A stretch of 63,998 bases of DNA, filler included, from Perkinsus olseni (taxonomy: Eukaryota), in the NCBI GenBank assembly GCA_013115125.1. It is 3 parts of 3 records of this genome, joined end to end, with 100 filler letters (N's around TTAATTAATTAA, not from the genome) between each part and the next. Parts side by side here need not be neighbours in the genome. Positions count along the whole stretch, not along the records: positions 23,210 to 46,149 come from JABANN010000527.1; positions 46,250 to 63,998 come from JABANN010000635.1; 1 more part is not named here. One strand, written 5' to 3'. Made by a program: the position numbers and the translations under genes. The notes below the pieces were generated by a model, which did no database searches, had not been told where the DNA came from, and saw only the letters and a program-made list of their open reading frames with translations. This document shows positions 24,071 to 60,300 of the stretch, in pieces (within the stretch, counting starts at the first letter, position 1; each line of letters begins with the position of its first letter).

Positions 24071-24722
24071 TGAGAACCACAATTTGTTTCTCAAACGAAT
24101 AACAATTCCACTAAGTGGAATTGGTTTCTATGGCATGCCAGTAGAAACTTCCTCATGGTACGCTAGTCTAGGGCACACCAGCATTCCTAGCACCGGTGCT
24201 CACCGTCGTGCGAGGTTAATCTTACTACAGAGAGGATAGAACTTCAACTTGTTCATATTGATATATATAGGTTCTCGATAGGATCCTTCCCACATTGGCA
24301 CAGCCATTGTGGCGCAATGGCAGTGACGTAGTGGCGCAATGTCGTCACTACTTCACTGAAACAGTGCACCGTATACCCCGAAAAGATCCATTGAAGTAGT
24401 CTCCAGGACTGACCCGTGGACCACGGGCCGTGGTTAACAACGCGAGAATACTCGGCTGTAGTGCGATTTCAACCCATCCCAGCTGGCGACAGGGAAGGAG
24501 GCTCCGAGATACACTGCAGCAATCGATCAGCAACCTGCAAGCTCCTGACGTCATCGCTCAACATCGAATGGTCAAGAAGCATCGAATCAAAGTTAAAAGG
24601 TTATTGAATCATAGCGGAAAGCGTACGAGAGATTGAGTTGACCGAAATCTGATTTGGGAATCGTCATCCTGGTGGACTCTAAAGGCTTCCCCCTGCCTTC
24701 TAGTGGTTAACGTGACAAGCCG

Positions 24723-25161
24723 CTAGAAGTGGCGAACGGGAAGGGCCAAAGAGCGTAGCAACCAACACGATTCAGCATAACAAATATGTCAGAAGAGTCA
24801 TCGTGGCGGATTCTCTCCCAGTCCACGTAATCGAGGTCGAATGTGCTCGCGAAGGCGATGAAGTTCTCATCTGATGTATCTAGACTAGATAATCTAGTTT
24901 CATCGTATACTCATTAGCGTCTACATCATATGGAATGTCACCCGTGACGTACCAGTCGATGTACGGGAATTCTTTGGTGGTACATGCAGCAGTGATGTTT
25001 ACAGTTCCTGCAGGGTGGGGTCGACCGGGTGTAGCGGAAGGGCTGAACTTCCATGTAGTCTCGAAGCTGTCATCGCCAGAACTGAAATACACCTTGCTTG
25101 GAGGGAAGGCGGCCTCCGGGTATGTGAAGACGATTATCAGCAGGGTGAGGAGGTGAGACGT
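24723..25161 (-). pseudogene. Copy B of the tandem secreted-protein family, frameshifted
   Basis: Clear paralog of 27785-28198 (AFPPSKVYFSSGDDSFETTW...WYVTGDIPYDVDA). The aligned start codon is ACG, and a 14-nt insertion at 24881-24894 shifts the frame. Confidence 0.8.
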
Positions 25162-26333
25162 ACGGAGTGATGCACTGCAGAACCAGGCAAATGAGGCCAT
25201 GAGCGTAAGTATCCCAACGCGACTCAGCATGAGGCGCCGAGCACGCATACACGATGAAGAAGATGCATGCGGGTCACCGGAACTCGATTTCCGGTGCCAG
25301 AAGTCCTCATTCCGATACTCCTGGGTCTAGGGAGTTTTTACGCATTTTTCCTAGCAAGCAAATTCCGGCTCAACTCGGAATGTGATGCACCGACCACTGC
25401 AGTCTCGCGATTGAAGACCTGCTGTCTTGGATCATCCGACGACATGATGTTCTCTTTATGCCTAGAAGGCACTTCCTACGAAGGGGACAGTGGGCTCGAG
25501 GAATTGATCGGCTCATGCTGGGTCTGGACTCTGGAGGCTCAACTCCTTGAGGGGCCGAGTATCTTCGCCACTCGACGGTTGCAAGGTGCGTTACTCTTGG
25601 AACAATTTTCTGACTGAGTAGTGCCACACAGCGACTATTGATACGCGGCACGTGTGAACCTTTGTGGGTGCAGTGTCCCGCAGATGCTGTCTCCGGCCAA
25701 AGGAGCTGCTGGGAACATGTGGCGTGCGGGAACTCGGAGATCGGCAGCTTCAAAGGTCTCCTAGGATGCTGTTACCAGTCATGGCAAACCCAAGTACTTA
25801 AGACTTCTCAAGAGACTATAATTAAGAGTACATCATCATTAATAAATGGGAATCGCTAGGCTAAGATATGGGGACTGATATCTTGTGTGCTGAGTGGTCA
25901 GGGACACTGGCCACCAGTCACACAACAGATGCCATTCACGTTGACTCAATATGAATACGCGGATACTCGAACCGCTCTACTTGCAATTCGCAAGTTGCAA
26001 ACGACACCAGCCCTTCAGTTCGCGCGTTTGGGTCACCGAAGTAATCCCAGTAGCCGCGTCGCACGTCCTCATAGATCTCATACGCTTACGACTCGTAAGT
26101 TACGAGGACCGCAGGCTATGTTCTAGGTTATGATCACCGGAGAAAGATTTGACCGAACTCTGTGAGTGGAAATTTCACCCATTAAATGTGACATATAGTA
26201 TCCCCGTTCTATTTCTCATGTCACAGGGTAGGCCATGCCCGGTTTGAGGATAATCTTTCTTTCCTCAGAGGAGACAGAGGAGCCTCCTCTGGCTTCGACA
26301 CGTTTAATAATATCTCCACGAGAGATACTACGG

Positions 26334-27099
26334 CGGGATGTTCATGTTTCGTACACCAAATAGTCGTACATTTTCGACTCATGTCTCCAATACTCATACA
26401 CTTCCTAATCGTACACGAAATACTCGTACACCGAATAGTCATACTCAAAATACTCATACACGAGAGATTCGTACATATAAAACTCGTATACATGATGCTC
26501 GTATACGTAATACCGGTACATATAACACCCGTACACATAATAGTCGTACACTTTCAACTCGTATACCAGCATTTCATACACTCTTATTTCGTACACAACC
26601 CCAGTTTCAAGTCGTACACCGTCATCTCGTACACTTCGCGAAAATTTTTTAGGCAAGTCGCGGAGCTGCTCCGCGACTTGCCTAAAAAATTTTCGCGCCG
26701 GCTTCGCAGGCGCTCTCGCACCCCTTAGTGCCACTCTGCTTCCTCCCTGGTAAGGGAGTCCCTGCACATAGGTTTGAACCAGCGGTCTCCCGATCGAGAG
26801 TCCGCTACCTTAAGCACCATACCACTCACACTAATAAACTTTTTCTCACAGAGTGGCGCGAACAGTTCGCTCCCTATAGACAATATAACTTCCTTCGCTC
26901 CGTCATTGCACCCAGCGCGCGGCCCAAAAATGCGACTCAGCAAGCATGGTGTACGAGAAACTTGAGACTCGTACAATACGAATCTCAAGTGTACGAAATG
27001 ACGATGTATGAATCCGATGAGTGAACGAGTACTCAGTGTACGAGCCGTGTACGAAGCGATAGTGTACGAGTTTTCGGTGTACGAATCGTAATACACCCG
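26334..27099. mobile_element. Non-autonomous foldback/MULE-like DNA transposon with tandem-repeat TIRs
   Basis: Termini CGGG...CCCG. A ~15-bp-period TCGTACA array on the left (~26347-26633) is mirrored by an inverted GTACGA array on the right (~26950-27085). Flanks ATACTACGG / AGAGGACGG match 6/9, a possible degenerate 9-bp TSD. Confidence 0.7.
26637..26697. repeat. Perfect palindrome, 30-bp arms, 1-nt centre
   Basis: CGCGAAAATTTTTTAGGCAAGTCGCGGAGC-T-GCTCCGCGACTTGCCTAAAAAATTTTCGCG. Confidence 0.95.
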
Positions 27100-27784
27100 A
27101 GAGGACGGCTTCGGGGTTCGTTCGGCCATCTGCAAGTCCCTGGGGTCCTACTCGTTCAACATTGAGTGATCAAGAAGTACCGAATCACGAGGAAAAGTCG
27201 AGATCAAAGTCGAAAATGTGAGAGATCTAGGTCTTCAAATTGTGTCGATTGATACAGATAGGTTCGATAACTACGTAATGTGCGACCGTGTTTCAGTACT
27301 CCCTGAATATCACCCTGCTTACCGGTGGAGAATAGTACAGTACTACTAGCACTGTGCTAGTAGTACACGTACGCTAGTAGCGTAACGCTACTACTCTAGC
27401 AGTACACCATGTACTCCTGACCCGCCGCATCCGGCTGAAATCACGGGCTATAATTCGGAAACGAACCCTCCCCGAACAATCTGCTTCGAGTAGTCTCTGG
27501 GAGCGACTCAGGATTAACAACGCAAGGATGCTCGGCTGAAGAGCTCTTTCAATCTATCCCAGCTTGCAGCAGATAAGATGGCTCAGAGATACGCTGAGGA
27601 GTTCGGTCCGCCATTTGCAAGCTCCTGACGTCCTTGCTCAACATCGAATGGTCAAGAAGTATTGAATCACGTTGAAAAGTCATGGAATGATAACGGAAAG
27701 CGAACGAGAGATTGAGTTAATCGAAATCTGATTTCGGAATGGTCAAATTCCTGTTGGACTTCTGGGGCGTCCTCGCGCCTTCCT

Positions 27785-28198
27785 CTAACGTGGTGGGAAC
27801 GGAAACGTATAGAGAACGTAACAACGAACACGGTATAGCAAAATGAACATGTTATCAACGTGATTGTAGCGGATTCTCTCCCAGTCCCCGATATTTAGGT
27901 CGAAGGTCGCCGCGAAGGCGATGAAGTTCTCATTTGATGTGTCAAGTTTCAGGACAGACTCATCAGCGTCCACATCATATGGAATGTCACCCGTGATGTA
28001 CCAGTCGTAGAACGGGAATTTCTTCACGAGATACACAGCAGTGATATCCACAGTACCCGCAAGGGCTGTAGCCGAAGGGCTGAAAGTCCAGGCAGTCTGA
28101 AAGCTATCATCACCGGCACTGTAATACACCTTTTTCGGAGGAAAGGCGACCGCCCCGTATGTGAAGGCGACTATCAGCAGGGTCAAGAGGTGAGGCAT
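27785..28198 (-). CDS. Small secreted protein of unknown function (137 aa), intact copy A of the tandem family
   Basis: Signal-peptide-like start MPHLLTLLIVAFTYGAVA, an open intronless frame and two local paralogs. Confidence 0.75.
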   Translation of the reverse strand: MPHLLTLLIVAFTYGAVAFPPKKVYYSAGDDSFQTAWTFSPSATALAGTVDITAVYLVKKFPFYDWYITGDIPYDVDADESVLKLDTSNENFIAFAATFDLNIGDWERIRYNHVDNMFILLYRVRCYVLYTFPFPPR

Positions 28199-30942
28199 AC
28201 GAAGTGGTACACTGCGGAGTCAGGCGGATGGAACCATGAGATTGAGTGTTTCATCGCAACGCAACGTGACTTGCCTAGCACGCAGACACAATAGGCAAGG
28301 CATGTAATGCGTGCGGGTCACATTGGCACGATTGTCTGTACCAGAAATTTCTATACTCGTATCTGTGCTAAGGATTTTTTTCGCACGTTTCATCAAGCAA
28401 CCAAAATACGACACAGCTAGAGATGTCAGTGCACCGACCACTTCAGTGTTTCGACTTAAGACCCCTTATATTGGAAAACCCGACTGTCGGATTACCCTCT
28501 CTGTGCGTAGAAGACACTTCCTACGGATGGGACAGTGGAATGAACTGATTAATGGCTGGGCCTAGGTCAGACGCTTCGGCTCCATCATGAAGCCTGCATG
28601 ATGGGTCCAGCATTTCTGCGACTCCACAGTTGCGAAGAGCTCTACTCTAGAAACAACCTCATGAGCAAGTAGTCCCACACTGCGACGATTGGAATGCGGC
28701 ACGCGCGAACCGAGCTTGCGGGCGTCCCGAAGTCACTGTCCCGGCCGGAGGAGCTATCTGGAGCCACTGGCATACGAGATTCTCGTCACGATATTCCGGT
28801 GATCGGCAGCTTCACCCCTGAAATACCAGTGGAGTGGACTCAAAACGGCTACGTTGACACAGAAACCCCCTCTTCTTGCAACCGACCACGAGCCCTTCAG
28901 TTCCCGAACTTTTCTCGGGGACAGTTCCCCCTAGTGGCTGCGTCACGAGTCTTCGTAAGAATCTGCAGTGCAGATTCTGCAGCCCATCGCTGTTTCTTGG
29001 CTCCTTTGGTAGGGTTTCACTTTCATTACACTTCGGACGCCTTTTCTAGGTTAGAATCACTGCGGAAAGATGATATCGTCCGCCGTGTGTCGGACATGTC
29101 GTGTCCCCGTTATATCTTTCACGCTAGCAAACTGGAAAGCAGCAAGTCGTGTTAGAGTTTTCCGAGTTCACTGCCTCCGGCATGGTTAAGCAATATCCCC
29201 GACGTACTATCACGACGAGATATCCCGGCATAGCAATATCCTCTCCGATATCTATCTTCGAGTAGAAGACTCTCTCCACTCGCACGGTGCGAGTCGCACC
29301 ACGTCATTTCATTCCGATCCCCGTTCTCCCAAAGCAACGGCCACAGTCGAACGGTGCTACGAATATTGCCCTCTAACTCCGCCCTTACCGTATACTATAC
29401 GGCTAGAGAGTCTCTAGCGTTGCCTCCATGTCACCCAGTATCAATGCACGAATTTCTGCGAGAAGTGCTGCGATTTCCTCTCCAAAGCTCGAATGGTTTG
29501 TCCCAGTCGCCAAGTCGGCTGATTTACGCGGCGTAAATTACGCCAACCCGGCCGATACAATTTCTGTAACAGAGATGGAATTTCTATTCCGCCACATAAG
29601 TTACTCCGCTGCAGATTAACTTGATCCGGTTGAGTGAAGGATTGCACGTTCTCTACGTGACGTGGAACATGTCTCTTGGCCAGCGGGGACATGTCTCCTC
29701 ATGCGTAGCTAAGGAAGGCGAAGCTGATTCTGCGTGTCAAGATAACCAGAGCCTTTCTCATGATGCGCACCATCGTCGAAATCTTAATCATCATGTGCCT
29801 ACGTGGCACCCTGTCAGTCATCGAGATCAAAAAGTCTCCCAGAGGAAACTTGTGAGTAGACCCTCGGGGCTTGAGGATACCACGCCCTTATGTTATGGAA
29901 ACATCTGCCTGCACTCATACTTAGATGAAGTGCTGTATACGTGATATCCAATATTACGCATTGCTACTGAGAATCTCAGTCTGAGATGCTCCCTGGTCGA
30001 GTGCCACTCATCTCCACATTAAGTCATAGTCAATTTCTGCCTCAAGCAAGTTCGACTCCAAGTTAGGGCGTACTGCCTTTTTCGGATCAGATTTTTCCCA
30101 ATGTTTCGGTATGACATCTCAGAACCTCTTGCCAAAATTATTTTGGCAAAATGTCCTACGCTTTGAGCCCGAAAGGCTGAGTTAACGTTGTTAATTCAAT
30201 AGTTGTAGGAAGGTACCTCGGAAGCAGCAGTGAAGGTGGGGGTGGTGAATAGGCCAATTATAGGCTCTTGCACTAAACGGTTGCCGGAAAGCTCAACGCA
30301 ACCGACTGTGATTAAAGCTCGGGATTTCATCCAGAACCCCATGCAGTGAGATCTCGATTCCAGATCGGTGTCATAGTTTCGCTCATACTACTACGCGACA
30401 GGGACGTGAATTAAGATACGCTGCTATCGTGATTTACGTTTTGGCTTCATTGGACCGTCCAATTAAAAAAAATCATCTGCCTCATCATCTGCCGTCCAAA
30501 TTGGACCAATTTGAGGCGGTTGAGGTTAGTAACTTTGTAATACCAAGATTTGCAACCAAGGCATGGTGCCTTCAATTGTAAGAGATCTCTCAACGAGACG
30601 CATCACTTTTACTCAGCTCAACAGTTAAGCTTTCGCCGATTCAGCTATTTGCTTATGTGCAAAGCGAAGGACTCGACTCATTGCTGTCCTCTGCCAGATT
30701 CAACATGTGAAGACTATCACCTGCACACCTCAGTAACGACTGTAGCGTCGAATCCAGGCGAGTTATCTGACTCCCCAAGTTCAGAACGGGCATCTGCTGC
30801 TCCTTAGAGGGACGCTCACAGTGGGTGTCATGTGACGTGACGTGACTCACGCCGCCTGTGACGCAACTCTTTGCCAGGATCCAATCACCGAGCTGAGAAG
30901 CTTATGACTGTATCCAAGCAGGGTGCTATCAGTAACCTTCTA

Positions 30943-31786
30943 ATGCAGACCATCGTCGGGATTATATGCTTCGCTTGCCTGAGCGGCGCCATCACTAGTG
31001 ACCGCGCTAAGCGCGGCGCGCTTGCACTATCTCGTTGCAGTAGGTGTAGTTGTAGAACACAACATAAGTAGATTGGGCTCATAGTGAACGAGATAGAGCA
31101 GATAGAAAGGTCGAGTAGTTGAGAGAATGGAGTGATAATGCGAGGCTAGTATGAGCACAGCTCCATTGTGTTATGTAGACAGTGCACGCTCACCTCGAGA
31201 GGTCTCCCAAGGGGTACTCGTAAGTGGAGGAAGAGGTTCCAGATTACTCGTGCTCCCTCTTCAGCATAAGCATGATGCCGTTCGCTGGCCTGTCAAGAGC
31301 TGATATTATCCCTGCAGGTGAGACTCGACTATGCGCAATTTGCATACGCGTTTTCAGACAACTTAACCGGGGCGGACTACGGGAAGCCGATGATGCCGGG
31401 GCACCGCTGCGACAGTGGGAGACTGTTTGGCGGTGGAGTGAGTTGGGGAGTAGCAGCTTCCCATCGCGATGTCTCTATATACTTCTACTCACTCTTTTCG
31501 AGAGGGCGATGGTGTCGTTACTCCGCTTTTCTGCACAGGATTTTGCTGTTTGCGCTCCAGCCTGTAACGTAAGCAGCGATTGCTCCACCCCACCCTTTGG
31601 CACGAAGGCATGCAGTACCGGGCGTTGCTATATGAACTGCACGTCAAATGAAGTACGCAGACCCGGCAGATGGGTTTCCGATCTTCATTTCTGCTCCCTC
31701 AGGAATGCGGAGCGGGCTCCCCAAAAATGGGTTGCATTTGGATGCCGGGCTTGAAGTTGAGTACTTGTATGTATTTAATGAGCTAG
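30943..31786 (+). CDS. Small secreted cysteine-rich protein, multi-exon
   Basis: Signal-like MQTIVGIICFACLSGAIT. Exons ...YGKPMMPGHRCDSG, DFAVCAPACNVSSDCSTPPFGTKACSTGRCYMNCTSNE and ECGAGSPKMGCIW...TCMYLMS* are joined by GT-AG introns. Confidence 0.65.
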
Positions 31787-32024
31787 AACTATTCGGCCCT
31801 AGTTAAACGAAGAGGCCAAGTACGCTTGCCTCTCTGTTAACCATCAACTTTATCGTCTCTCTCTGCTGCGGTTTATACCCAGATGGTGTGCAAAGTTACA
31901 TTCATATGCAACATAAAGCGCGCGATATGATTTTTACTTGCCGATTCAAGTCATGAGTGTTTCGTTGTCTTCCGTGAAATCTGCTCCGTCTCAAGCGGAG
32001 CTCGTGTACTGTAGTTTCACCCTC

Positions 32025-33904
32025 TCAGAACGAGTCTCCCGTTAATAGCAGCTCCACAGCAATCTCCGTTGGAGGGGTATTGTACGCAAGTCCCGGCTCA
32101 CCTCCACCATTCCACTCGATGGTGGAGTTGTGCAATTCCCACAAAGCCAGCTGGTCACTTGAGATCAAGGCTGAGGGCAATCGATTGGCGAGCGTCCCTA
32201 TTGAGTGACTCAACCAGAAGCGAGAATCGTCGAACAACCTCACAAAGCATCGGCATGCGTAGCATCGACTACTGTGACGGTTTGCCGTTGATGAGATGAC
32301 CAAGCTTCGAGTACAACTCCTCCAACTGGTGAGTTGCACCTAATTAACTCTCGGTGAGCTTCTTTCGACTCGCGGTTGCCTCTAAGTACCCCGGCAGCGG
32401 TCACATGAGCAACGAAGCGAACACCCCACCTTCTAGAGCCGCAGCCTGCTTCCTCTCACTCTTATCGATGCCGTCAATCATTACAGCGGGATTCATCTTA
32501 TCTGAGGAACGCCAAGTCCCTGAGGTTTCTTCTGAAAGCTTTCAAGAGGCAATGATAGAAGCATCCTGAACTGAGTTCGTGGATGGCAGCCGAGAGCTTC
32601 GTAGAGAGACCAGAAGCTCATACGCTATCCCAACAACTACGTTCTATATAAACAGATACGCGTGTTTCAACTAGTTGCCAAACTTCAGGGCTCGCACCAC
32701 TCCGAAAAGCATACTACGACTCATAACAGAATTATTCCCAAAGTCTCCCTAAAATGATTGAGATGATTTATGTCGCTATAAAAGGATATGCTACACCGGC
32801 ACCTCTATCAGAAAGACCTACAGTGACGCACCTGAAGTCTTCAGCTACCTGGCTGCACTTCTTATACAACTGCAGGGGCGCACGCCCTACATGGTCATAT
32901 TGCCTACTGCTACACTCAAGCGACTCCTCGGGCGAGAGAGATTGGCTTCTCCGACATCCTCAAAGTGGAGAAAACAAGAATCTTCGAGTTGGCGACCGAA
33001 CCAAACAACAAAAAGTGTTGAGTAAAGCCCGCTTACTCAGTCCGAAGGGCGGTGGAGGTAAACAGCAACGTCGACGAATCGTACTCACCATCCTCATGCG
33101 CTCTCTCCATCAGAGACACTGCTCCATTGTTATCATCCGCATCGTCACCCGCCATGCCAGGTTCCACCAGATGCAGCTGCACAGCCACCAGAGGCTTCTT
33201 GTGTCCATGACGAGACCTTCGCTGCAGGAAAGACTTCGGCGGACCTGCCGAAAGAACTCTGCCGATCCGCGCTGATGCAGCAAACCCACCCTGCTCGTCT
33301 CCAGCTCTGTCCATCGGCTGCATCACCAAAGGCTCCATCAGCTTCGAGCGGGCATTCCTACAACAGGAGCTGCTACCACCAAGCGGATATGCGCCGGTTT
33401 CGGTAAAGTACTGTAGTGATGAATCATCACTGGGAATCATCACTGATGATTCCCTAGTGTTGTCTCCGTAGCTAGCATTCAATTCTATCACCCATGCGCA
33501 GCTTATGACATCTGTTGATTCCTTTAATGGGAAACACTAGTTGGTTATCGGCTTGTTGACAACGGCAGAATCTCTGCGAGGTAGGTGTCAGAGCTCCACC
33601 CGTACTGAAGGCGAGCGACGACTATTGAGAAGGTTGCTTAGTAGATTACGAACGTGCGGGGCACAGAAAAGCATAACAGTAGGAGGCACAGGTACCAGTG
33701 GTACCTACCACAACTTACTCTAATCTCGTTCGAGCGGCATTCAACGACTCCATCAGAGACTCGATATTCAAGCTCCCCTCGGACGCAGGCCTAATCAGAA
33801 TCAACTCTCTATCGGTGATCACAGCCGTGGCGCTACTCGATGGCCGCAACAACTGTCGCGATAACGATGAAGATAATGAGAGTCGCTCCGGAAATGGCAG
33901 ACAT
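32025..33904 (-). CDS. Hypothetical secreted or membrane protein, multi-exon
   Basis: Hydrophobic N-terminus MSAISGATLIIFIVIATVVAA, a long exon at 33033-33491 and a last exon ending IAVELLLTGDSF*. No family was recognised. Confidence 0.5.
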
Positions 33905-34073
33905 GTAGATTCAAAGTAATGGCTAAGTTAAGGCGACCCTCTCTGCTAGATGGCTAACACTCTCCTCGAGCCAGGTATCTCCATCTTCGGCAGCAGCTCT
34001 AAAGACGACCCCTTCGACCAGAGGAGTAATAGACTATAGCTACGTGCTCAGGATTATCGTCTGAGTTCGATAT

Positions 34074-34246
34074 AAAAACCATTGGAGTTTCCCCCGCGAT
34101 ATGAAAAACACTAGTGAAATACGCACTTCACATCGCGAAATTCACACTCGACAAGTCAATAACGCGTGAAACAGCTTAGGTGTTTCTCACTCGCGATGTG
34201 AATGGGAAGCTACTTCGCGTATTACTGGTGAAACTCCATTGATTTT
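34074..34246. mobile_element. MITE-like fold-back element (~175 bp)
   Basis: Terminal inverted repeat AAAACCATTGGAGTTTC / GAAACTCCATTGATTTT (15/17), plus a perfect inner 12-bp IR at 34127-34138 / 34191-34202. It is intergenic. Confidence 0.55.
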
Positions 34247-34312
34247 AGCCCTTATTATCATACCAGGCTCTACCTTAACATTGATATAAATACGATTTGG
34301 TCCCCAATAATT

Positions 34313-37300
34313 TTAAAAATGTGTTAACAGAGGTCGGGAGACAGTGCGCCGCACCGCATTGAATGCTCTGAGTAGGAACTCACAGCCAACCATCTTCGGC
34401 ACGAAAAATGACAGTCCACCCGCTGCCCCGATTGAAGAACGAAACACTGAGTCTGCACGATAAATCATGACGACAACATCATCACAAAATTCGTCTGGCC
34501 GAAGGGCCTGTGAGTATATTTCCAACGCTCCTGTCGCCGTCTGATGAAAGAACTAACCAGTAAGAACAGCCACAGTTGAGACCTTACTCGGAACTTCTTC
34601 TGGTAAAGTCCTGTCGGCTAAAGATTGTGACGTCGTGACACGGCGCCAAAGATACGATCCAGCCACCGGCGGCGCTGCTGGTATGGCGTTCAATCGGAGC
34701 CCCCAATCCTGACCTGAAAAATCTTTCTACTGCGTCAGGGCTCCGAGGCAGACAGCAAGAGGGTAAGGAAACGGAAGGCTCCAAAGTGAGAGACCCCTGG
34801 TAAGCAAGAAAACCTGCGAATAACAGATCACCACGATATGTAGCCTCACCGTCAGTCCACCCGGCAGCAGTGGGGCTTCGCCCAACCCTCTGAGGTCTGT
34901 CAAGTCGTCTCCTGCAAGACCACATGGTAAAACTTAAAAATATTCTTCCATAAAAAAGGAAAATTAAAGCGCGCTCTCAAGATGACACGCAACCACCCAC
35001 CACCATGTCGATCACCCGAGCGACGAGGCCTGATTGGGCTAGTCAGTTCCCACCTGAGCGCGGATGTTGACGAAGCCATTCCAGCAGTCCGGAATTCTCC
35101 ACCGCCAGCGGGTTCGTGCTGAACTCAAACTCTCCCGAAAAACACCAGCCGTTGGATGCTCACTTTCCTACGGCGAGGGGCGCTCGCCGTGAATGGCGTC
35201 TTCAACACGCCCGGCCCCGCCGTTCGACACAGATAAAAGTAGGACGCTTCTAGGGCAGCAATAGACGATCGCAACACATCAGGAGGAGTACCTCTGCGGA
35301 GTTCACTCGGTGAGGAGCCCTCTAGCGCCCGGAATTGATCCAGCGCTGGCGTGCTCTTCGACTGCTGCTTGCCACGAGCTCCTCGAAACTCTCGAACGAC
35401 AGTCTCTGGACTCCCGCCTGATGGGAAGGTGAAAGCGTTCGAGTCCGATCGAAGTTGTCTAGAGCTGATCTAAGCCATTCAAGGTGTGAATATTGAAGCG
35501 GCACCTGGCCCAGTAGATCAGAAAGTAATACAGCTGTCGAATAATGAGCTTCGCGCGTGCAGGTGTGAATTTTAAGCCCATCGCCAATAACCGGCGAAGT
35601 ACGACCAGCCCAGTTTCAAGAGGGGCGAGTTTTTAACTTTAAACTTGAAGTCTAGGCAAGCCTACTGAGCACAGAAAGTGTATTTGAAATGATGTAAGAT
35701 TCGGGAAACACAGCTCTTCCACCCGACTGTATTACTTCTCCTAATGGCGCCAGCGGAAGTGCCCGGCCTGGTCCCAGCGGATTCGTCCGGCCTTCTCAAG
35801 TACTGGCCAAACCCACCGCCGCTCTTGGGACGCATCCTTTCACCTTGTGTAGGGCCTGAGATCGCCCCTGAGTTTAAAGCCACGAGCAACCTCCCTACTG
35901 AGCGTTTCATTTTGTTGGGGGAAGCAGGCCGTCACGCCGGGAGACAATCCCTTCTGTTGATACTCTCCTCGCGGACCAGGTAGTACCGAGGGCAGTCGCT
36001 GAGATCAAAATCGATCAGATGATCGATCTCGCCAAAACCACCCACTTCGAATTCAACCTTCTCCGGTTCTTCTGCTTCTAATACCGGCACCGACTCGGTC
36101 GTATCAAGGCCTTGAGGAACTGAACCGCAGCGGACTCTCCCGATTCACTACGACGTAAATTTACCCTCACGTAATGTCGGCTGCGATGTTGAAGCCCGTC
36201 GGGGACCCTCTGGAGGGCTTCGTACTTCGTACTTCAAAGCACAGCGAACCGTGGTGCGGGCCGGTACATACAGGCGACGACCAGGGCGGAAGTCGAGCTC
36301 CACCATGGGACAGATAGAACCTAAGATACGCTATAGCGATCGCATCGGAATAGTTTCTGACCAGCTTTCATCAGGTCAACGTAGAGGTTCTCCAAGTTAC
36401 TCCTGATGCTGCCCTCTACCCGCAACAAGGCCACCAGTGATGTCGCCTGAGAGATACTCGGTGAATCATACTAACACTACAGGCAATGCAGAGAGCGGAA
36501 AAAAAACTGTACAGCCCGAGAACTTTCCACTTACAACGAGTTAGAGTTTAACTTCATTTATGTGCTTTAATGAAAACCAGACCGCAAACTCGAAAAAAAT
36601 GATTTCACCAATCCCAAGACTAACCTCCGTCACGCGAGAAACCGAGCTCATGCCTTTTCCGAAAAGAAGGCTTCTGCCTTGCTTCGATACAAGGTCCGGG
36701 TAGGATGAATCCTGAGAGAATTTTTTCCCGACAGACACAACGGCAGAGGCAAAACTCACCTGAAGCATCCTCACTATGGCGACTACCCTCATCAGCTCAC
36801 TGCGGACCAAATCAAATACCATCTCCCGCAGTTCTCCTAGCCGCCTCAGCCGATCCAAGACGCCTGTCGCAACAAATTCGGATTTTTTCCGCCCGAAAAT
36901 TCTCACTTTTCACAAGTCTGGTAAACCTGTGAACTCTCGTCATGCCGTCGCCGTACCCGAACGGAGGCTTCCTCGCAGCATGCAGGACGTCCATGTACCC
37001 CTCCCAAACCGTCCGCGCCAGAAGGTCCAGCTCCTGAGCGGGCAATGCGCATCCGAAGAGACGAATCTTTCGCTCACTTCCAGCTCCATCTTGAAGACAT
37101 CCACTGGCCCATCTCTCTCGTCGGGAGGTGTCCACGCCATGAAGAAACCAGCGTCATCAGACAGGCCTGAAGAGAATTTCCTCCGCCGGGAATCGAACCC
37201 GGGACCTCCGGCATCTTACCCGATATACAGGTCTGAACGGCAGTGCCACTACCATCATCAGCTTCGCTAAACTCTTCATCCGGGAATCCCGATTTCCTCC

Positions 37301-40300
37301 TCTCCCTACCACACCAATAGTAACTCATCCCACTTCCGAGGATACCCACTTCTCAGTCCTCTCAGCTTGCTCAGCCTCTCTCGCGTCCGCCAGCATCCTC
37401 TCCAAGACTTGTATTTGACCACGAAGAGTTGCAACTGTGGCTCGCAAAGATTCTATCTGAAAACGCAGTCCGCTCGAAAAAAGTATCTTCCCATCCGTCC
37501 GACCTCTCCCCGCAATTCCGCTTCCCTCCTCTGCCCTGCCTGCTTCTCAGCCTCCATCGCCTCTAAAAAAATATACCCTTCACGCTCCTTGCAATCAACA
37601 ACAACATCCTCAAAAATTTGATCGATAATTAACGATGGAGCTGCCGGTCTATCATACTACACAAAAATAAAAACTTGAAATATTTATAAATTAAAAATTC
37701 ATGATGATACTCATTATCAATACCGGATACCAGTAGGAACTAAAAAATACCGAAATACTTTCGCTAAAGCATCAAGTATCATGGAAAAGAGAAGGACAGT
37801 ATATCGAACTTCATTCATTTCGCCAACACTTCCTCTCTAATCGACAAAACGCCTAATAAATACAAGGCGCCGATATATCGACATACCCATTTTTCGTCGA
37901 AAACACCGGGCCACAAGTGACAATGCAATAACGCACCCTTGCGTATAATATCCCTGATTATAAGTGTCATAATATTGTTATCTATCCAACTTCATTCCTC
38001 CCACCAAGAGTTCCTTTCTAAGCGACAAAACGTCTAAAGAACATTCTTCGCTCCAATACAAGGCGCTGCTCTAGCAAGGTTATCGTACACCAAAGCCCAT
38101 CCTTCCAATTGCAAAATTACAGCACAGTAACCCACCCCTGAGCATATCTCTTTCCTTCTCCGTCTCCTCTTGCTGCTTCCTCAACTCAGCCATCACTTCC
38201 TCCATCTGCCTCGCTTTCTCAGCAGCTTCTTCCAACTCCCTTAGTGCCTTCACAACAATACCGTGCACTCCATTCCGGAACCAACCAGTTCGATGATTTC
38301 CCCGTGGAGCGGTAGGAAATTCACGGGCAGCTCTTCTTAGACCAGAAGAAGATTCACGGGCAGCTCTTACTTACTAATAAATTATTAGTATTATTATTAT
38401 ATTATTAGTATATATAGACGTATAGTGAGTTACTATTAGTATTATTAGTAATAATACTAATAGTAACTCACTATACGTCTCCTCTCGTTCTGAGCCGATT
38501 TCGGCCAGGCAACGGACCAACAACCGGCAGGCAGTCGGCTGTTTATAAGGTCGGGGTGCTCAGGTTAAGTAACTCAGCGCTGGGCTGAGTTTTTTTTTCG
38601 CACATCATTCGGCGCATCCACAAACAATAATCAAGCCTCCCCCATCACTCACCACAGCGTTGGCATCCCGTCCACTTTCCTCCCCAGCCACCACCAGTCG
38701 ATCCACTTCCTTCTGCAGCACTTCCTCTCTACTTCTCGCCTCCTCCAACGCCGCCTCAGCCTACTCAAAATATATATAATCTCGATAGGAGCGCTGGCCT
38801 ACCTTCTCAACTTCCCTTCTGAGACTCTCCAGCTCAGTCTCGCGAGATTTCAGCCCTTCCAAAGCTTCCGCCAAGGATTTCTCCAGAGCGGCACACCTGA
38901 ATTGGCAACGCCGATTTGCGTTAGGAAAGAGCAAGATAGCAAGATATGGCAGCCACGCCGAAATCACCTCTCTTCAGCAGCTTCCAGTTTCGCCTGAGCT
39001 TCTCGTAACTCCTCCTCTCCTCCGACCGACTCCGCCGCCTCTTCCACCACTGGTGGCGGTTCTTCCTTCCTCGCGTTGTCGAGTTCTTCCCGCAAATTTT
39101 GAGCCTCTCGCTTCGCTCCGTCTACTTCTCGCTGCATAGCCGCCAATTTTCCTTCCAGCTCCGCAACCTGGCAAGATACTACATACTCGCGTGTCGTTTT
39201 TCTTCTCGACAGAAGAGCGTATCATGTCGTCATTCGGCGAGTCGAATCATTAAAGCGCTGCCCCAGGATTTGCTGAGTCCCGCCCTGAGCCTCATTTTTG
39301 CATGAGGTTGCATCTTCTTCGTGACGCACAGTATGAAAAATCAACTCCGATCAACGCTTCCCCCATCACTCCCTTCTACGACGGAAAATAGGAAAATCAA
39401 CACCACTGATAGAACTCCTCTCGGTGATACATATACCGATATGCTGATACCCACTATAAACACAGACTCTTGAGCTCAAAATACCGAGAAAGATACCCCA
39501 GCAGACGGATGTAGCAGACGGGCGTCTACTACATTTTCCTGCCACTTAGTTCGCTCCTGCTTCACCCTCTCATCAACCGTTCCCTCCAAGCGGCTTCGTT
39601 CGTCCTGAGGAACCAAGAGTAGCGAAGGACGTAATATACTTGAGCTCAACCAGAGATGGCTTCATCATCACTACTAAATCAACGATGGGAAATTCACGAT
39701 GAAGCCAAAAAAATTATTCTTCTTTTCCTGAGGAACGAAGGGTAGCGGAAGACGTGATAACCTTGAGGTTTTGCCAGATGTTACTTGCTACTACCAAAAC
39801 TACTAGTACAGACGGAACACCATAGTAGGCAGCAGTCTAGTCCGGGAAGAACGCTGCAACGACGGAACTTTCATAGAAAATTAACGATGCGGCCAAAAAA
39901 CGAAAATTCTTCCGGAATTTTCACCCTAGGCGCGAGAAATGAGCAATTGCCGATGGCACCACTGGAGAGCGGCAATTCCGAAGAGCAGAAAATCAGCTTA
40001 AAATGGTTAATAACGGAAGGACTTCCAAGTCACCTCTGATGCTTGTGCAACCGCGACCTCAACTTCCTTATCGATGCGCGGCTGGACATGCTCGCTGATG
40101 ACCCCTGGGTGGACCTAACACAGTGACAAGGAAATGTTATCGGACACAAGCTCGTCGACAGTGACCTAGCAAGTTGGTCATGGGACGGTGATACATGGTA
40201 TATCGAAGAACCAGAGGCCTGGCTACCAATCGTCAACTTTAACCGCCACGAGGCAGCCCACTAGGGTCTACCGTGATAGACCTATCTCACGAAAAAAAGT

Positions 40301-42892: not shown

Positions 42893-43218
42893 GCTTTTCG
42901 AGTTTTCGCGCGCGCCCAATATCGCCAAGCGCGGACTCGACAGAGGGCACAGAGGGCTAATCGGCCAGCTGATGCACATCAACGTCGATTTCTAGCTGGG
43001 GCCGTATGTGGATCCTGATGCGTGCATCGCTACCCCTGAGTAAAATCACCCTGTGATCCCGATGCGTGAGTAAAATCGGGTAGTGGTGCTGAGTACGTGA
43101 GTCGGATGAGTCATGCTTAACACAGCGCGCTACGCTTGAAGTGGCATTCTGGAGAGTAGCGGGAAAGGGTTCTTCTGGAGCACGGACGACTCGAAGACAA
43201 ATCCAGCCATACAAACAT

Positions 43219-43290
43219 AGCCACTTGCCAGGACTGAACTGACGACCTTCTGCTTACGAAGCAGACGCTCTACCACTAAGCTAAAATGGC
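43219..43290 (-). tRNA. tRNA-Thr(CGT)
   Basis: Full cloverleaf GCCATTT-TA-GCTTAGTGGTAGAGC-G-TCTGC-TTCGTAA-GCAGA-AGGTC-GTCAG-TTCAGTC-CTGGC-AAGTGGC-T with anticodon CGT. Confidence 0.92.
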
Positions 43291-44523
43291 CCATGCAAAT
43301 TTCTGTCCAGATACTAGCTGCCCCCGGGACAAAGTGCGCTCTCCTACCGAAGAGTTATGCAATCTTACCAAGAACCGGCAGCATTCGTCAGGATTGATCT
43401 GAGGATTTTCTGCTCGGCTGCCAGTCTTCCAAACTTGAGAATCTCAATGGATCTTCAATTCTCTGCTCTTTAACCCGTCTGACTATGAAAACGAGCAAAG
43501 GAAGGATAATCCCGCGGAGATCAACTCAAGGAGCGAAGGTCGCCGCGCGAGCCTTCCTCTTTCCTTGCTTCTATCTACCAGGGAGAAGACTTTATCCGAT
43601 GAACTAGCGAGATCGTACACGCTGGCCAACACTTTGCCCTTTGTGGTCCGCCCTCGCCATCAGACGTGACGTCAGCCCAAGCGGTGAAGTCTTCGCGGAA
43701 CTTTCCGACCAGCGCCCGAACGCATTCGAATCTCGTAAGATTCCCTTTGTGGGTAGATTACAAACTTAGCAATACCAAGCGAAAAGAGAGATGCCGTGTT
43801 GTGCCGTTGGGATTTCTAGTCTCAATTCTTAGTTCTCTGCGCGTGGGTCAAGCTTCTTTGTCGTCGTATCATCGCCAAGAAGTTCCATTATAGATCTTCG
43901 CTTGGACAATCACACCCAGTCCTCATCCTCGCAGACCGCGAGTCGCGGTGATCAGGACGGGGAAGGAAGATTTTGGAAGCGTACGGGGTTGTGACGACGC
44001 GAGTCACGAACGACGCTTCACGCGATCACAATTACATTCAACGCGTAACCAGTCGAGATTTGATCGACTACTGTACGAATAGCAGGCAGGTCATAACCTC
44101 GGGATGAACTCTTCGCCGATATTCGATCACCACCGAAGCCATCACCTCCCGTGGCTTCCCTCGTGTTGCGGAGGTACAGACGCTCGCCGACAACCCGCGC
44201 GTACACATGATGACGGGACACCGCATTCGAAGCTAGACGATGTAGTCACTACATTGCATAATACAATGATTGTATTGGAGACACCGCGGCGCAATTGAGT
44301 GCTTCAAGAGTGGTGCACGACTGGTTTTCAACCTGTGATGAATGCTAGGTGAAACAGCTCCGGCATACAAACGCATGTTACACAAGCGTGTCTAGAGACG
44401 AGTCTTTGACCATCAACAGTTGCTAGCGTCACGCTACAAGAGTTCGAGCCCGTTTAGTAAACAGTGTTTTCTACCGAGCTCGCTAGTTAACTGATCTCTC
44501 TATAGCATCTCCTCGGCTCTTGC

Positions 44524-45408
44524 ATGACCCTCAAGACTCCCAACTACGAGAAGGACCACGTCTACGCGTAAGCCTCGAGTGAGTCCTCGCTGGGACTCTC
44601 TGATTCGTTGTGTGTTAAGTACGTGCTTGTGAATCATCATGGTGACGGCAAGGCCTCATCGGCCAGCCACTTTTGTACCAAGCTTCATATTTGGCTCGAG
44701 CTCGCGGGGTTGCCGTACACCCTTCTCGCGGCGAACGGGCCCGATGGTCCCTACGGTGAGTTGTGGTTGAACTTTATCGACGTCTCGTTTTTATCTTTCC
44801 TTCAATATTCAGGAAAGGCCCCCTACATTGAACTCAACGGCCAGGTTTACGGTGATTCCAGTGCTATTGTGAGGATGCTCTCGGAGAAGTACAAGAAAGA
44901 CTTGGACGCCGACCTCACTCCCGAGCAAAAGGCAATGAGTGTTGCCGTCCAGCGAATGGTCGAGGAGCACGCTTACTTCCTCAGCATCGCCGACATGTCA
45001 TTGCAAGAAGGCGCCTTCGATGTCCTCGTGAACAAACTCATGAAGCTATCTACTGTCGCCAAGTGGGTCTTCCCGACCTTTCTGATGCGCAGTCTCAAAG
45101 CCAATTTGAATGGTCAAGGCATTGGACGCCTCCCTGAAGCTGAACGCCGTCAAAGAATGGAGCAAGATATCGAGGCACTCTCGGTTATCCTCGGCAACAA
45201 GAAGTACTTCGTGAATGATGAGAAGCCTACTACCATCGACGCTACTGTTTTCGGTTATCTATGGTCCAACTTTGACACTGATTCAGAGTTCACTAAGTTC
45301 ATGTCTTGCTGTGAAGAGTGTAGGAAGTACGATAACTTGATGGCTTACTACAATCGTATGCGTGAGATGATGCTGGCGTCCGCCGACAAGTGGGCCATAA
45401 AGGCGTGA
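44524..45408 (+). CDS. Glutathione S-transferase-like protein, FAX/metaxin family
   Basis: Motifs SASHFCTKLHIWLELAGLPY, GKAPYIELNG..YGDS, QRMVEEH and LGNKKYF..KPTTIDATVFGYL. First exon is MTLKTPNYEKDH(VY), with an in-frame intron at ~44756-44812. Confidence 0.88.
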
Positions 45409-46149: not shown

Positions 46150-46249
46150 NNNNNNNNNNNNNNNNNNNNNNNNNNNNNNNNNNNNNNNNNNNNTTAATTA
46201 ATTAANNNNNNNNNNNNNNNNNNNNNNNNNNNNNNNNNNNNNNNNNNNN
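46150..46249. other. Assembly gap with artificial TTAATTAATTAA linker
   Basis: N-run, linker at 46194-46205, N-run. Confidence 0.97.
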
Positions 46250-46437
46250 CCACAACTCCGACTCCTACTACTGCCACTCCTACCACCCAGGCGGCTACCA
46301 CTCAGGCCGCGACAACCGCGGCTATTACTCAGGCTGCGACCACCCAGGCGGCTACGACTGCGGCCCCTAGTTCCCAGGCTGCCACTACACAGGCTCCTAC
46401 TACTCAGGGTTCTACGACCGCGGCTCCTACTGTGTAG
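46250..46437 (+). CDS. C-terminal fragment of a mucin-like Thr/Ala/Gln-repeat protein
   Basis: TTPTPTTATPTTQAATTQAATTAAITQAATTQAATTAAPSSQAATTQAPTTQGSTTAAPTV*. The 5' part is lost in the gap. Confidence 0.65.
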
Positions 46438-51523: not shown

Positions 51524-52422
51524 ATGGAGTGTACACAACGACGTGTGGTGAGAGGGAGGGAGTGTCTTGCAGCAATTAGAGAATGCAAAGCGTTCTTGCG
51601 AACGTATGCTAAGGAGCCTCCCGACTCGGGAGTCCCGAGCTTTGCGGATCTGTACGAGAGGGAGCGTAGCGTGACCAGTGAGGTTGTAGTGGAATGCTCC
51701 ACAGTCCTCTCTCGCCAACTCTAGCTGGGGAACGTGGCATAGGGTATCGGGAGGCCGAACTATGAAGGCGCGAATGCTCGTTGCTGGCTAGCATAGCGCA
51801 TCTCTCTACGAAGCATAGTGTCACGCTGTCTCAAGCGAGAGTCGTCCCAGCGATTCTACCGCATGCACGCAAATACCGGCCCTTCAGCTCCTCGTTGACA
51901 TCGCTGAAAATTCAAGGAGTGCAGGGGAGTATTCGTCAGTGGCAGAAGTCATTCGTCACGCGGGGTTCCGTTAAGTTTGCTCGTCGAGAACGCTGAACAT
52001 ACGGTTCCCTAAAGATTTGGAACTGGCAAGGGCAAACTTGCTCCTCCGGCCCATCGACAACCTCTGCCGAGTCAAACACATTACTTTCGGCTTGCATGCT
52101 GTACGCAACCAACGGTATGGAATCCCGCTGGAATATCACTCCTGGCGTCTTCCATGATGGTGACTTCCGGTTTGGCAGTGTCTGCATGTTGTCTATCGTC
52201 GGAGGCTCTCTTATGGGGTCTGTTGCAGCCGGAACCCTGTGGTACTGTATCCAAGGTATCTCCACTAAGGATGGTATGAGTATCGATTCCCATGCGGATG
52301 CCGAATCTGAGGATATTATTCTCACGACCAAGCAGAAAGTATCATTCAACAATGTGGAAGGAGGTTGGAATTTCGACGTCGATTTCAAGGCACCAAGAAG
52401 CGCTCCTCTTCCACAAGACTAA
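51524..52422 (+). CDS. Hypothetical protein with a C-terminal transmembrane-like segment
   Basis: Exon-like ORFs with splice signals and a hydrophobic stretch VCMLSIVGGSLMGSVAAGTLWYCI. No family was recognised. Confidence 0.35.
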
Positions 52423-55410: not shown

Positions 55411-55953
55411 GAGGGACGTCTCCCACGACAGACTCGACAAGCTGTACGGCCGGGGATCACACCCTCCCGGGCCCCCTTGCAATATGGTCGATGGCAAGCA
55501 CTCTACCCCTGGGGGCAGATGTACTCACTGAAGAACACAACAAGCTTTCACCACTGCCAGAAAGGAAGTGAAGGAGGGATTCACTGGGGAATCCCCAGTG
55601 GGGATGCCGCAGACAACCGCCGCGCGCGCTGTTTCCCTCTGCGGTATCCGCGGTGTTTCGTAGATGGTGCAGTCCACTTGGGGACGGTTCCGCGAGAAGG
55701 CGGAAGCGGATCTTCACTCAAGTTAATCCCCGCGATCTCTCGCTCTTAAACCGGAAGAAGGTTTACGTTTGCATCGGCGTATCTTGGGAACGTGCGCAGC
55801 CGTTGAGATAATGCAAGATTTCAAGATGTCATTGCCTTCCTGGGATCGAGGGATCCCCAGGGGCCATCGTGGCCAGTGTTGGGCGTTGTCGAGGCTTCGT
55901 ACTCATTGCGACCAATGACGCCTGAACTGTAGACCTTCATTTACCCTGCTATA

Positions 55954-57204: not shown

Positions 57205-57306
57205 CTATTTATTTCCATGTCATCAATATGATTATTATTATCATTATTTTCCGAGCTGTTTGAGAGTACATTATTGTCTAGGGGAGCTGCATCGCTGCTG
57301 ACCTCA

Positions 57307-60300
57307 GTGGTTGCAACTGGCTCGCACGTTGATTATACCAGGACCCGAGGCTACTCAACCTGGTATGACCGTCATCATGGTGTTTGGTTCGTGAGTGGGT
57401 GAAGGAATGGTATTCGGAAAGAAAGGTTAGCGAGCCCGATTGAAAATCGCATTGCACTTCTCGTGTCATTTGCGAGTTGCCACCTGAGGTCGAGACGTGT
57501 ACCTCAAAAGGGGTCGCACGAGGCCGTTGTGGTCGGAGAGTTGCCGACGTGCATGGTCTAGTTGCTGGTTTTGTCATCGAGTTATCGAGTCGCCTGGATC
57601 GAGGATAGAGCCTGGTCAGGGGGATGGGGATCTTCTATTAACATCGCTCCTACGCCTAGGATATCCCGGTGTCGTGGCTGCTCATCTACGACGGCGTAGA
57701 GCTGGAAAGAGGCGTGATGACCAGGTGGCGATGTGACATGACTGATGTCCTGTGTCCAGGCGCGTGCAATGGTCTGCTGCTGCCCGTATTGAGGAACACT
57801 CGTGGAGGCTTCCAGCGCTTCGACTAAGAACATTGGGTTAGTCCGGCTGGTCAAAATTAACCAGAAATTATCGAGTGTAGAGTGAGAGTATTCCTATTCT
57901 GGACCCTATGCCGGGGAAGCGCATCTGGAGAGTACGCATGAGGTAGTTTCTCACCATGCCACCGCAGGCGTCAGTCCCTGCCTCCTTCTCCTTCTTGACC
58001 TGGAACGTGTTGCACTCGGCGCACTATCAACGGCTATTGGCTGATCCAGCATTCAACAACCCTAAAAGGAGGTATAGCTACCACCTTAGACAACATCCTG
58101 CGGTAGGAGTACTATCATTCTCAGGGCAGTAGCGCCAGCAGCCCGACTGGTGAACCTTACTAATCACTTACTGAGACTGAATGCTGACATAGTGGCTCTA
58201 CAGGTGATGCAGAGATGACAAGGGGGAGTCCAGAGGTTTGGTCCCTGGTACTCTAACGCCTCCACGGGCGAAGGGAACGTCTCTCAGGAGCTCGACATCG
58301 CCACCCTTCCTAGCGTGAAGAGTACCCTCGAGTCTAAGGGTGGGTACCGGATGGTCACGGCTATGATAAACGAGGCAGTCCAAGCTAAGGTGCTGCTGTC
58401 TCTTACTCGTTCAAACGGAAGTGGTCGTTCCGCCGCAGGACGGTTGCGCCCTATTCTGCAAGACTGATCGCTTCGAACCTCTGGCCACTACCGAGTTCCG
58501 AATGTGCCATGCCTTGGATAGATACCTCCACCCGCTGGCTCAGTCCCAGGGGGGCCTCGCAGGGGCTCTGTAGTACAACCTGCTGCCTCTACAGCATGCG
58601 AGGGCTCCTAGCAGGTACAGGGAAACACGGGAGAAACTCAACCTGTGTGTGGCCGCCCTGCTGAGGGACCGGCTTACTGGTTATGATGTTCTTGCAGCCG
58701 CCACACACTTGTTTTGGAGCCCGAAGTGAGGGGATAGTCCGGAGGTCCTCAGGGGGTCAGTGAGCCTGCCCGCTCCTGTCAGGTTCCCCGATATAAAGCT
58801 GTTACAGGCGTATCTACTATCACGTCAATTGGAGGACTTTGCAGGTGAGCATAAACTCGGCAGTGGCTTACTTCTAGCGCGGGTATCTGCCAACCACCGG
58901 CCTGCTAGGCAGCCATAGGATTCGAGATTTACGGACTGGAGCTGATGAATCCTTCAGAATGAGAGTAGCGCGCACATGGGCAAGTTGATTCAGATTCAAC
59001 TCAAATTCAAAGTTCCGAACGAACTTAGAGCGTGTGGCCTACTACTGACACCGCCCAGCTGCGCACCTGGAAGGTACACGCTTTAGGGACAGACTTGCGC
59101 AGTGATGGTCAAATCGAACGACTGCTGCGTAATGTCTGTGCTTTGCGTGCTTCTGCTCTTTGATTCGTCGTCGACGCCATCCGCGCAGTCCCCAGTACAA
59201 TACGTTGGGCAATCGGGAATGAGGCCAATCGCCATACGAATCCTGATCTCACTTAGCACTCATGTCTCGTGGGAATGCTCCCGGACGATGCGTCATCAGG
59301 TGAACTTTCGAGCTCTCCCGCTCCTGCTGTAGTACTCGGTGGAGACTTCAATAGCACTCCGCCCGACAGCGCTGTGTAATAGGGAAGATCGGCATTGATT
59401 CGTGCCCTCCCGGCACGCCGGATCGGGCCACCCAGGATTCAATCAATACGATAAGCTTCTGATTCTTGGCGCCGCGGCGGCGCGGTTGTCCGGCTGGAGC
59501 CTCTTGAACCCCTCACGAGCTCTCTTGCACTCCCATACTTTTTGTAGCCTTTTGATACTAGAGGAGTCGAAGCATCGTTGACAGCCAGGACTCCGTCGTT
59601 CGAGATCGCCTCCTTGTTTCTCCTCCCGGAATGGATATGGAATGGACCTTCAGTAATGCAGTTCTCCTCTCAGCTACCAACTGCTCACTAAGGCAGCGGT
59701 CGACGTCGACCACCCCGAGCATCCGGTATCATTGCGACCAGGAAATAGAATTGTAATCATCTTCATCGAGCTTAGGGATCGCCCAGGATGAGGCATGCCG
59801 CTTAGTTCTTTCGAACTCGTGTGTACGAAACTTGAAGACTCTTTGCGAAGCACGTGTGAAGTCTTCGCGGGACATATTTTATTAGCGTTCACTTTCTTCC
59901 GGCACGATAGATGATTCATGCCTTGCGCAGATTCCGGGTGTCACGGAAGATGCGGTCGGTCCTCTGCGGCTGCCTAGTGGGCCCTTCATGAGCTCTGCGA
60001 GGACAGTGCTGGGAAAAGAACCGGATTTTACTAATTACACCCCCACCTGGCAGGGTTGCCTGGACTATGTTTTTTACAAGGAGGGCCGTGGAAAATTAAA
60101 GAGTAAGAGCGATCGCATGGCTCCTCCTGCCGTTGTGGCCGTCGCCGAAGATGCTGAACTGCCGCCATTAGTAGCTGCTCTCTGTAGGTCTTTCGATGGA
60201 CCCTCTCCCTAGTGTCGATATCCTAGCCAAACAGGGTACACTGCCTAACTCCGACATCCCCAGCGACCACATACCTTTGAAGGTTAATTTTAAATGGCAT

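Follow-up and report, generated by a model that had tools for sequence, protein, structure and literature searches.

The stretch of Perkinsus olseni DNA analysed here (hereafter the window; 63,998 nucleotides, filler included, three parts of assembly GCA_013115125.1 joined end to end) contains a dynein heavy chain gene, a short Perkinsus gene with a hydrophobic start and outside known Pfam families, present as three partial paralogues in tandem (23577-28550), a non-autonomous element with GGG...CCC ends and, scattered among them, many perfect palindromes with exactly one unpaired central base. These palindromes are our subject: paired in a fixed geometry, they form short scars that are very probably the excision footprints of DNA transposons of the hAT superfamily. 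The joints between parts (23110-23209 and 46150-46250) are N runs with a TTAATTAATTAA linker, and palindromes there are artefactual.

Compared with 100 local shuffles preserving dinucleotides in 2-kb blocks, the window holds 51 inverted repeats with a one-base spacer and arms of at least 7 bp (4.2 ± 2.1 in the shuffles, maximum 10) and 10 with arms of at least 9 bp (0.21 ± 0.41, maximum 1). At arms of at least 7 bp, spacers of 0 and of 2 to 6 occur 2-5 times each where about 3-4 are expected, which is no enrichment, and spacers of 7 and 8 occur 7 times each against the same expectation. The original prediction had proposed this excess from 17 palindromes, all of which we recovered with the coordinates and arm lengths it gave, and the comparison of spacer lengths that it suggested, run here in the window, singles out spacer 1 at arms of at least 7 bp. 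Its list was incomplete, and its count of seven sites with arms of at least 9 bp becomes 10.

The palindromes are paired with their centres 7 bases apart, a spacing with 16 occurrences in the window; in 516 kb of other contigs it occurs 122 times, and no other spacing up to 40 exceeds 11. Each pair forms a 22-bp unit, T[1-7]+revcomp(T)+T[2-8], in which T may be any 8-mer; the unit carries 14 internal constraints that chance does not yield and records the target sequence. The palindromes cannot therefore be taken as separate events, as had been assumed, since 24 of the 51 are the paired halves of 12 events; another 5 have a partner with one mismatch and 3 a partner with two or three. The 17 sites listed originally divide as follows: 7 form half of an exact 22-bp motif, 2 pair with a one-mismatch partner, 1 (38416-38480) is half of the two-hairpin form described below, 1 lies inside a MITE (a miniature transposable element with inverted repeats) and 6 are single-sided.

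A scan of 780 kb (the window, the 516 kb and a further 200 kb) found 150 exact motifs with an 8-base T (12, 85 and 53, respectively), each with a different T, whereas targets of 7, 9 and 10 bases gave 2, 0 and 0 and shuffled sequence none. There were also 80 motifs with one mismatch and 95 with two (null about 3.5). The targets are biased: T at position 2 or A at position 7 occupies 129 of 300 positions (p ~2e-12), and 28 of the 150 exact motifs fit nTnnnnAn where 9 are expected. Extrapolated to the 39.9-Mb assembly by a block bootstrap over 70 blocks, which are a non-random sample of contigs picked for length or for containing a search match, this amounts to about 7,400 exact scars (5,100-10,000), or roughly one per 5 kb, and, if as many as two mismatches are allowed, to about 16,000, a count that includes overlapping motifs. 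The scars are clustered (mean 0.9 and variance 2.4 per 5 kb over the 780 kb, maximum 10 per bin), and only 13 of the 150 exact motifs fall within long stop-free frames, although such frames make up 24% of bases, as would be expected if selection acts on a frameshifting insertion. After a low-complexity filter the full 22-bp product is seen 144 times against 0 in the null, whereas short footprints of the Ac/Ds type are at or near the null (one base on each side 15/17, one base on one side 120/117) or in small excess (other forms 40/31, 14/5 and 24/5); the dominance of the 22-bp product holds among recognisable products, precise excisions and deletions being invisible to such scans. Adjacent 6-bp duplications (756 against 246) were considered as a further excision trace and attributed to generic tandem duplication.

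Comparisons with paralogues, homologues and an orthologous protein polarise the palindromes as derived insertions, as had been proposed. In a pair of window paralogues 3 kb apart, both motifs tested (24413-24434 and 24877-24898) add exactly 14 bases, and at 23779-23818 34 alignment columns are absent from two paralogues (32 expected). A P. olseni protein from another assembly shows no break at 24877-24898 and matches the exon at 92% and 90% in two frames; since this orthologous protein reads through, the scar is a derived state and varies between isolates. The earlier statement that all palindromes lie outside intact exons is true solely in that the exon at 24877-24898 is no longer intact, the scar itself having frameshifted coding sequence that is read through in another isolate. 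A 604-base contig from run X7 (~7% diverged) spans 618 window bases including this scar, which is consistent with an empty site. Of 304 motifs that were exact or had a single mismatch, 23 could be compared with a homologue among the contigs examined, giving a modal gap of −14 in 12, −13 in 4 and 14+3 in 1; the gap was zero in 4 (three self or overlap hits and one 95% duplicate), and 2 were off-register tandem repeats, one of them also with 6 homologues at −14. In multi-copy MITEs, the 22-mer stands in one copy and a single T in 6-9 sister copies. Homologous empty sites thus hold one T and 14 bases fewer.

Confirmation in reads, suggested with the original prediction, was obtained for most of 23622-43000. 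Contigs derived from runs X1, X3 and X4, which cover three samples and two studies and of which one may be the source sample, contain the 22-mers unchanged at single-copy depth, and they match the window at 23622-25799, ~27900-31051, 31160-38445 and 38451-43000 with 0-1 differences and no gaps. The centres of the long palindromes are the part left unbridged: no listed contig crosses that of the 61-bp or the 65-bp palindrome. In the three runs, contigs at single-copy depth connect each arm of the latter with its own flank and stop on either side of the centre, as would be expected with arms longer than the word length.

A second class of scar comprises spacer-1 palindromes that lie 12-289 bases apart in pairs and have an 8-mer in common with at most one mismatch; 35 such pairs were counted, a few of them overlapping, against 1 in a reversed control. 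Their arms extend into their own flanks by up to 32 bases. To this class belongs the 65-bp palindrome at 38416-38480, a right half whose left half is 38372-38390. One 8-mer common to two hairpins implies that two copies of T, i.e., a target site duplication (TSD), existed beforehand and that the hairpins were opened far from their tips. In both paired classes, and at the trapped elements described next, the palindrome centre is the complement of T8 or T1.

Resident elements tie these scars to the hAT superfamily. The genome, which a 100% protein match identifies as that of P. olseni, has 11 matches to the hAT transposase domain PF05699, and one element (C521) combines an 819-codon open frame bearing DUF4371 and PF05699 with perfect 16-bp terminal inverted repeats (TIRs) and a perfect 8-bp TSD. 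In a second copy of it, 4 and 2 terminal bases are missing, and opened hairpins of one T stand on both sides. A CAGGG-ended MITE family (~600 bp) shows a perfect 8-bp TSD in all six copies with two intact ends, and in two further copies (C2503 and C2314) the ends are nibbled and lie between opened hairpins that share one T; another (C398) has an opened hairpin at the single end seen, and two other single ends of the family show none. Three hAT-type elements with nibbled ends thus sit between opened hairpins of one T, and they appear to be elements ligated back into the break made by their own excision. A pair of palindromes 824 bp apart (L079), considered as a further trapped element, resembles a scar duplicated directly at a later time, and it is excluded from the count. 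Elsewhere, a 4.1-kb hAT element with an 8-bp TSD (L062, G000:C293:336-4429) contains two exact scars of later elements, and at L124:110-138 (G000:C3003) an older one-mismatch scar overlaps the target site of a trapped hAT element, shifted by one base, which suggests reuse of a target site.

We propose that an element would insert and duplicate its 8-bp target T, as resident elements are seen to have done. The first nick of hAT excision is offset by one base. On excision, each flank would be closed into a hairpin with the complement of the element-adjacent base at its tip, leaving the single unpaired base; this step is established for Ac/Ds, and the geometry found here matches it. Palindromes arising from hAT flank hairpins have the complement of the adjoining base at their centre (PMC5873905; PMC4763223), and Ac/Ds footprints are centred in the same way (PMC5873905). 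The host would then open both hairpins at least 8 bases from the tip, one 3′ tail becoming revcomp(T) and the other T; such distal opening is suggested because the two-hairpin class has arms of up to 32. The tails would anneal across all 8 bases, flaps would be trimmed and gaps filled, a putative route to a product that is itself observed. Wherever the hairpins were opened at 8 or more bases, the outcome would be identical, T[1-7]+revcomp(T)+T[2-8], and would exceed the empty site by 14 bases. Tails ligated without annealing would instead leave the two-hairpin scar, likewise observed, sometimes with filler or with the excised element trapped inside.

For the joining step we lean slightly towards distal opening followed by polymerase theta end joining, with which 8-base annealing and filler would be compatible and for which a gene is present (POLQ, with helicase, POLQ_helical, HTH_61 and pol A domains in one frame); Ku/ligase IV joining is the alternative. 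The genome has one DRMBL nuclease gene, nearer to SNM1A (2e-45) than to Artemis (9e-18), in a search that could miss a split gene. It is tempting, although somewhat short of an even bet, to hypothesize that distal hairpin opening with polymerase theta annealing over the whole TSD, in place of Artemis-type opening near the tip, is the default in P. olseni. If so, most imprecise hAT excisions would leave one self-identifying 22-bp mark, the genome would hold ten to twenty thousand dated excision records, far exceeding its surviving elements, and scars would be a major source of isolate-specific frameshifts. In addition to the ligase I- and IV-like loci, a third ATP-dependent ligase-like gene was seen (L128, G000:C2191).

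Several observations count against the hAT excision reading or parts of it. No site has been seen both occupied and scarred in two alleles, and precise excisions and deletions escape motif scans. Of the 51 window palindromes, 19 are partnerless, about 4 being expected by chance, and at least one, centred at 27729, proved ancestral and due to chance, its paralogues carrying near-identical sequence without an indel. The two flanks of the second C521 copy lie on separate contigs and were paired by their common T with no spanning read; the CAGGG family owes its hAT label to its ends and TSD, with no transposase linked to it. The genome also has genes of the Ku80-like, ligase IV-like and Pol X types, which leaves the joining route unsettled. 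Lastly, the GGG-ended family of the window also makes 8-bp TSDs (among nine two-ended copies, 4 perfect, 1 near-perfect, 1 of 7 bp and 3 with none), and its flanks show a similar, weaker bias (T2 or A7 at 23 of 68 positions) that does not separate them from the scars.

This last point bears on the rival that survives best, although we judge it improbable: that Mutator-like elements (MULEs) such as the GGG-ended family make most scars by the same chemistry. Muta1, a MULE, produces flank hairpins (PMC5499845), can have an 8-bp TSD and has GGG ends with subterminal repeats as in the window MITE, and the genome has 18 matches to the MULE transposase domain PF10551, several in long open frames. Yet the TSDs described for Muta1 are mixed (21 of 8 bp, 39 of 9 bp), its target preference is weak and about 90% of its excisions in yeast are precise (PMC5225508), whereas exact motifs with a 9-base T number 0 in the 780 kb, a result with which a MULE duplicating 8 bp alone remains compatible. 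Opened hairpins adjoin none of 44 GGG-family ends (one palindrome lies farther out), as against four hAT-type copies, and no transposase is tied to the family, its repeats being absent from the MULE and hAT contigs examined. A candidate autonomous partner (C3177) was rejected, as it holds a nested long terminal repeat (LTR)-retrotransposon-like frame instead.

The 61-bp palindrome at 26637-26697, one of the two longest examples in the original prediction, belongs to this GGG-ended MITE family as an internal inverted repeat and is not a scar, imperfect versions being present in 15 other copies among 19 other loci compared. The family has 34 left ends in the genome, and its internal hairpin is conserved in that the arms differ and yet pair in a distant copy (L092). 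At G000:C573:80-128 two left ends stand back to back with 5 bases between them, an arrangement resembling a circle or tandem junction, and at G000:C3177:1600-5900 a 1435-codon LTR-retrotransposon-like frame is nested in a family copy. Frames with MULE domains (L066 and L071; G000:C226 and C184) adjoin frames with a helicase-like P-loop motif.

Still less probable is replication template switching, or snap-back at ordinary breaks with no transposon involved. The 22-mer could formally be written as a double template switch, and single-sided palindromes require no duplicated target; such switching leaves unexplained the fixed length of 8, the T2/A7 bias, the common 8-mer of the two hairpins and the trapped elements. 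For the paired classes it is largely refuted, and for the single-sided palindromes it stays open. Of the two origins entertained by the original prediction, hairpin opening upon transposon excision has been borne out by the derived insertions, the 8-bp target duplication and the tie to hAT elements; a transposon-independent snap-back is not needed. A RAG/Transib origin, also raised there, is not supported by the geometry: cleavage by these enzymes at the element boundary gives palindromes without a central base and a 5-bp TSD, whereas spacer 0 is not enriched in the window and T+revcomp(T)+T is essentially absent from the 780 kb (0 for T of 7-9 bases, 1 for T of 5, 0-2 across 5-9). Library fold-back, assembly artefact or chance, which the uncrossed centres of the 61- and 65-bp palindromes and the possible identity of one run with the source sample might favour, can be practically set aside in view of 22-mers unchanged at single-copy depth in three runs and two studies, of decay by point mutation (the 80 one-mismatch motifs) and of the avoidance of long open frames.

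The features of the window are collected in Table 1.

Table 1. Scars and other features of the window (T, target 8-mer; positions along the whole stretch)
Feature	Position	Strand	T	Remarks
Exact 22-bp scar	3996..4017		GTATCGGC	Within dynein heavy chain gene, probably intronic; sole exact scar in 1-16000
Decayed 22-bp scar, 2 mismatches	23282..23303			In repeat; another copy's contig 14 bases shorter at 23284, all 4 runs
Two-hairpin scar	23779..23818		TGGTATAA	Centres 23786 and 23811; weak arms, 7 and 6
Single-sided palindrome, 10-bp arms	24103..24123			Probably one opened hairpin, opposite flank trimmed
Exact 22-bp scar	24413..24434		CCCGTGGT	+14 bases vs paralogue at ~27506
Coding exon, copy A, scar-interrupted	24710..25158	-		92% and 90% identity to P0015, two frames flanking scar
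Exact 22-bp scar	24877..24898		TATCTAGT	+14 vs paralogue; frameshifts gene at 24710-25158
Exact 22-bp scar	26085..26106		CTTACGAG	
Non-autonomous element, GGG...CCC ends	26335..27098	+		15-bp-period subterminal repeats (MULE/foldback-like); holds 61-bp palindrome
61-bp palindrome	26637..26697			Internal inverted repeat of GGG-ended family
Nested scar cluster	27332..27393		TACGCTAC	Exact scar 27370-27391 (T given); one-mismatch motifs at 27339, 27346
Intact paralogue, copy B	27788..28198	-		Empty site
22-bp scar, one mismatch	28961..28982			
Exact 22-bp scar	29279..29300		CTCGCACC	
Two abutting single palindromes	29388..29418			Different T; variant form
Exact 22-bp scar	29523..29544		TTTACGCC	
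Exact 22-bp scar	29966..29987		ACTGAGAT	
22-bp scar, one mismatch	30132..30153			
Exact 22-bp scar	31002..31023		CCGCGCTT	Final base is first base of 164-bp MITE
Two-hairpin scar	33415..33454		GTGATGAT	Arms 8 and 11, common T; joined without annealing
Two-hairpin scar	38372..38480		CTAATAAT	Arms 9 and 32, common T; AT-rich filler; contains 65-bp palindrome
22-bp scar, one mismatch	43928..43949			
Exact 22-bp scar	51618..51639		CTCCCGAG	
Exact 22-bp scar	55584..55605		CTGGGGAT	
Exact 22-bp scar	61623..61644		GTGATGGG	
22-bp scar, one mismatch	62068..62089			

The chemistry and the transposon family are known; the departures from the model systems are the near-uniform product, an inverted copy of the full TSD, its having become fixed at a density of about one exact scar per 5 kb, and the presence of trapped elements. 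Excision sites of Tam3 and Ascot-1 also carry inverted duplications of the TSD. Ac/Ds in plants, S. cerevisiae and C. albicans likewise shows palindromic insertions, hairpin opening and frequent microhomology (PMC5873905; PMC4561436), although in what those sources report its footprints are heterogeneous and mostly short, arms of at least 3 occurring in 2.3% in Candida, 20-30% in Arabidopsis and 47% in yeast (maximum 20). In P. olseni, by contrast, one full-length product dominates and is fixed genome-wide, whereas Ac/Ds footprints were recovered at a reporter. The 8-bp TSD and the nTnnnnAn preference are shared with hAT elements of the Hermes/hobo type (PMC10368747; PMC6900584), from which P. 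olseni differs in its weak bias (43% per position) and in an intact transposase of the DUF4371-bearing type; the weak bias probably mixes several families. As in the P-nucleotides of V(D)J recombination, in RAG and in Transib, a flank hairpin is opened off-centre (PMC6900584), and the boundary-cut geometry without a central base is absent here. Our literature search, which took in few subscription journals and neither the classical Tam3, hobo and Ascot-1 footprint work nor the P. olseni genome paper, found no paper on such Perkinsus scars or on a genome-wide scan for them.

Cut-and-paste excision ordinarily leaves nothing to see in a single genome, which is why the natural rate of excision, the insertions lost and the attendant cost have been measured poorly. 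The fixed, self-identifying shape of the scars makes past jumps countable from one genome sequence, and mismatches between the arms provide a clock: the ratio of 80 one-mismatch to 150 exact motifs gives a mean divergence of ~3%, a rough single-age estimate. The depletion in long open frames offers a test of selection, and the scars read out the repair of hairpin-capped breaks in an early-branching alveolate. They also supply many homoplasy-resistant markers between isolates and a cheap pattern for screening other eukaryote genomes.

Some minor observations complete the analysis. Searches of the genome for RAG1-family proteins gave no match, a weak negative run without a positive control; PF12762 (Merlin, IS1595-type transposase) gave 0 matches in an exon-wise search that does not prove absence; and those for Mutator PF20700 and Ku_N gave none and are uninformative. 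A candidate element at 37391-45375, delimited by an 8-bp repeat and a 12-base TIR-like match, was put down to chance, as it has about single-copy depth over the part examined. Adjacent single palindromes with different T occur at 29388-29418 and 44240-44276, and each of these sites may represent the flanks of two different insertions fused after a deletion. The 164-bp MITE at 31023-31186 has TGCAC ends and more than 40 genome matches, and at least six of its copies have a 4-bp TSD.

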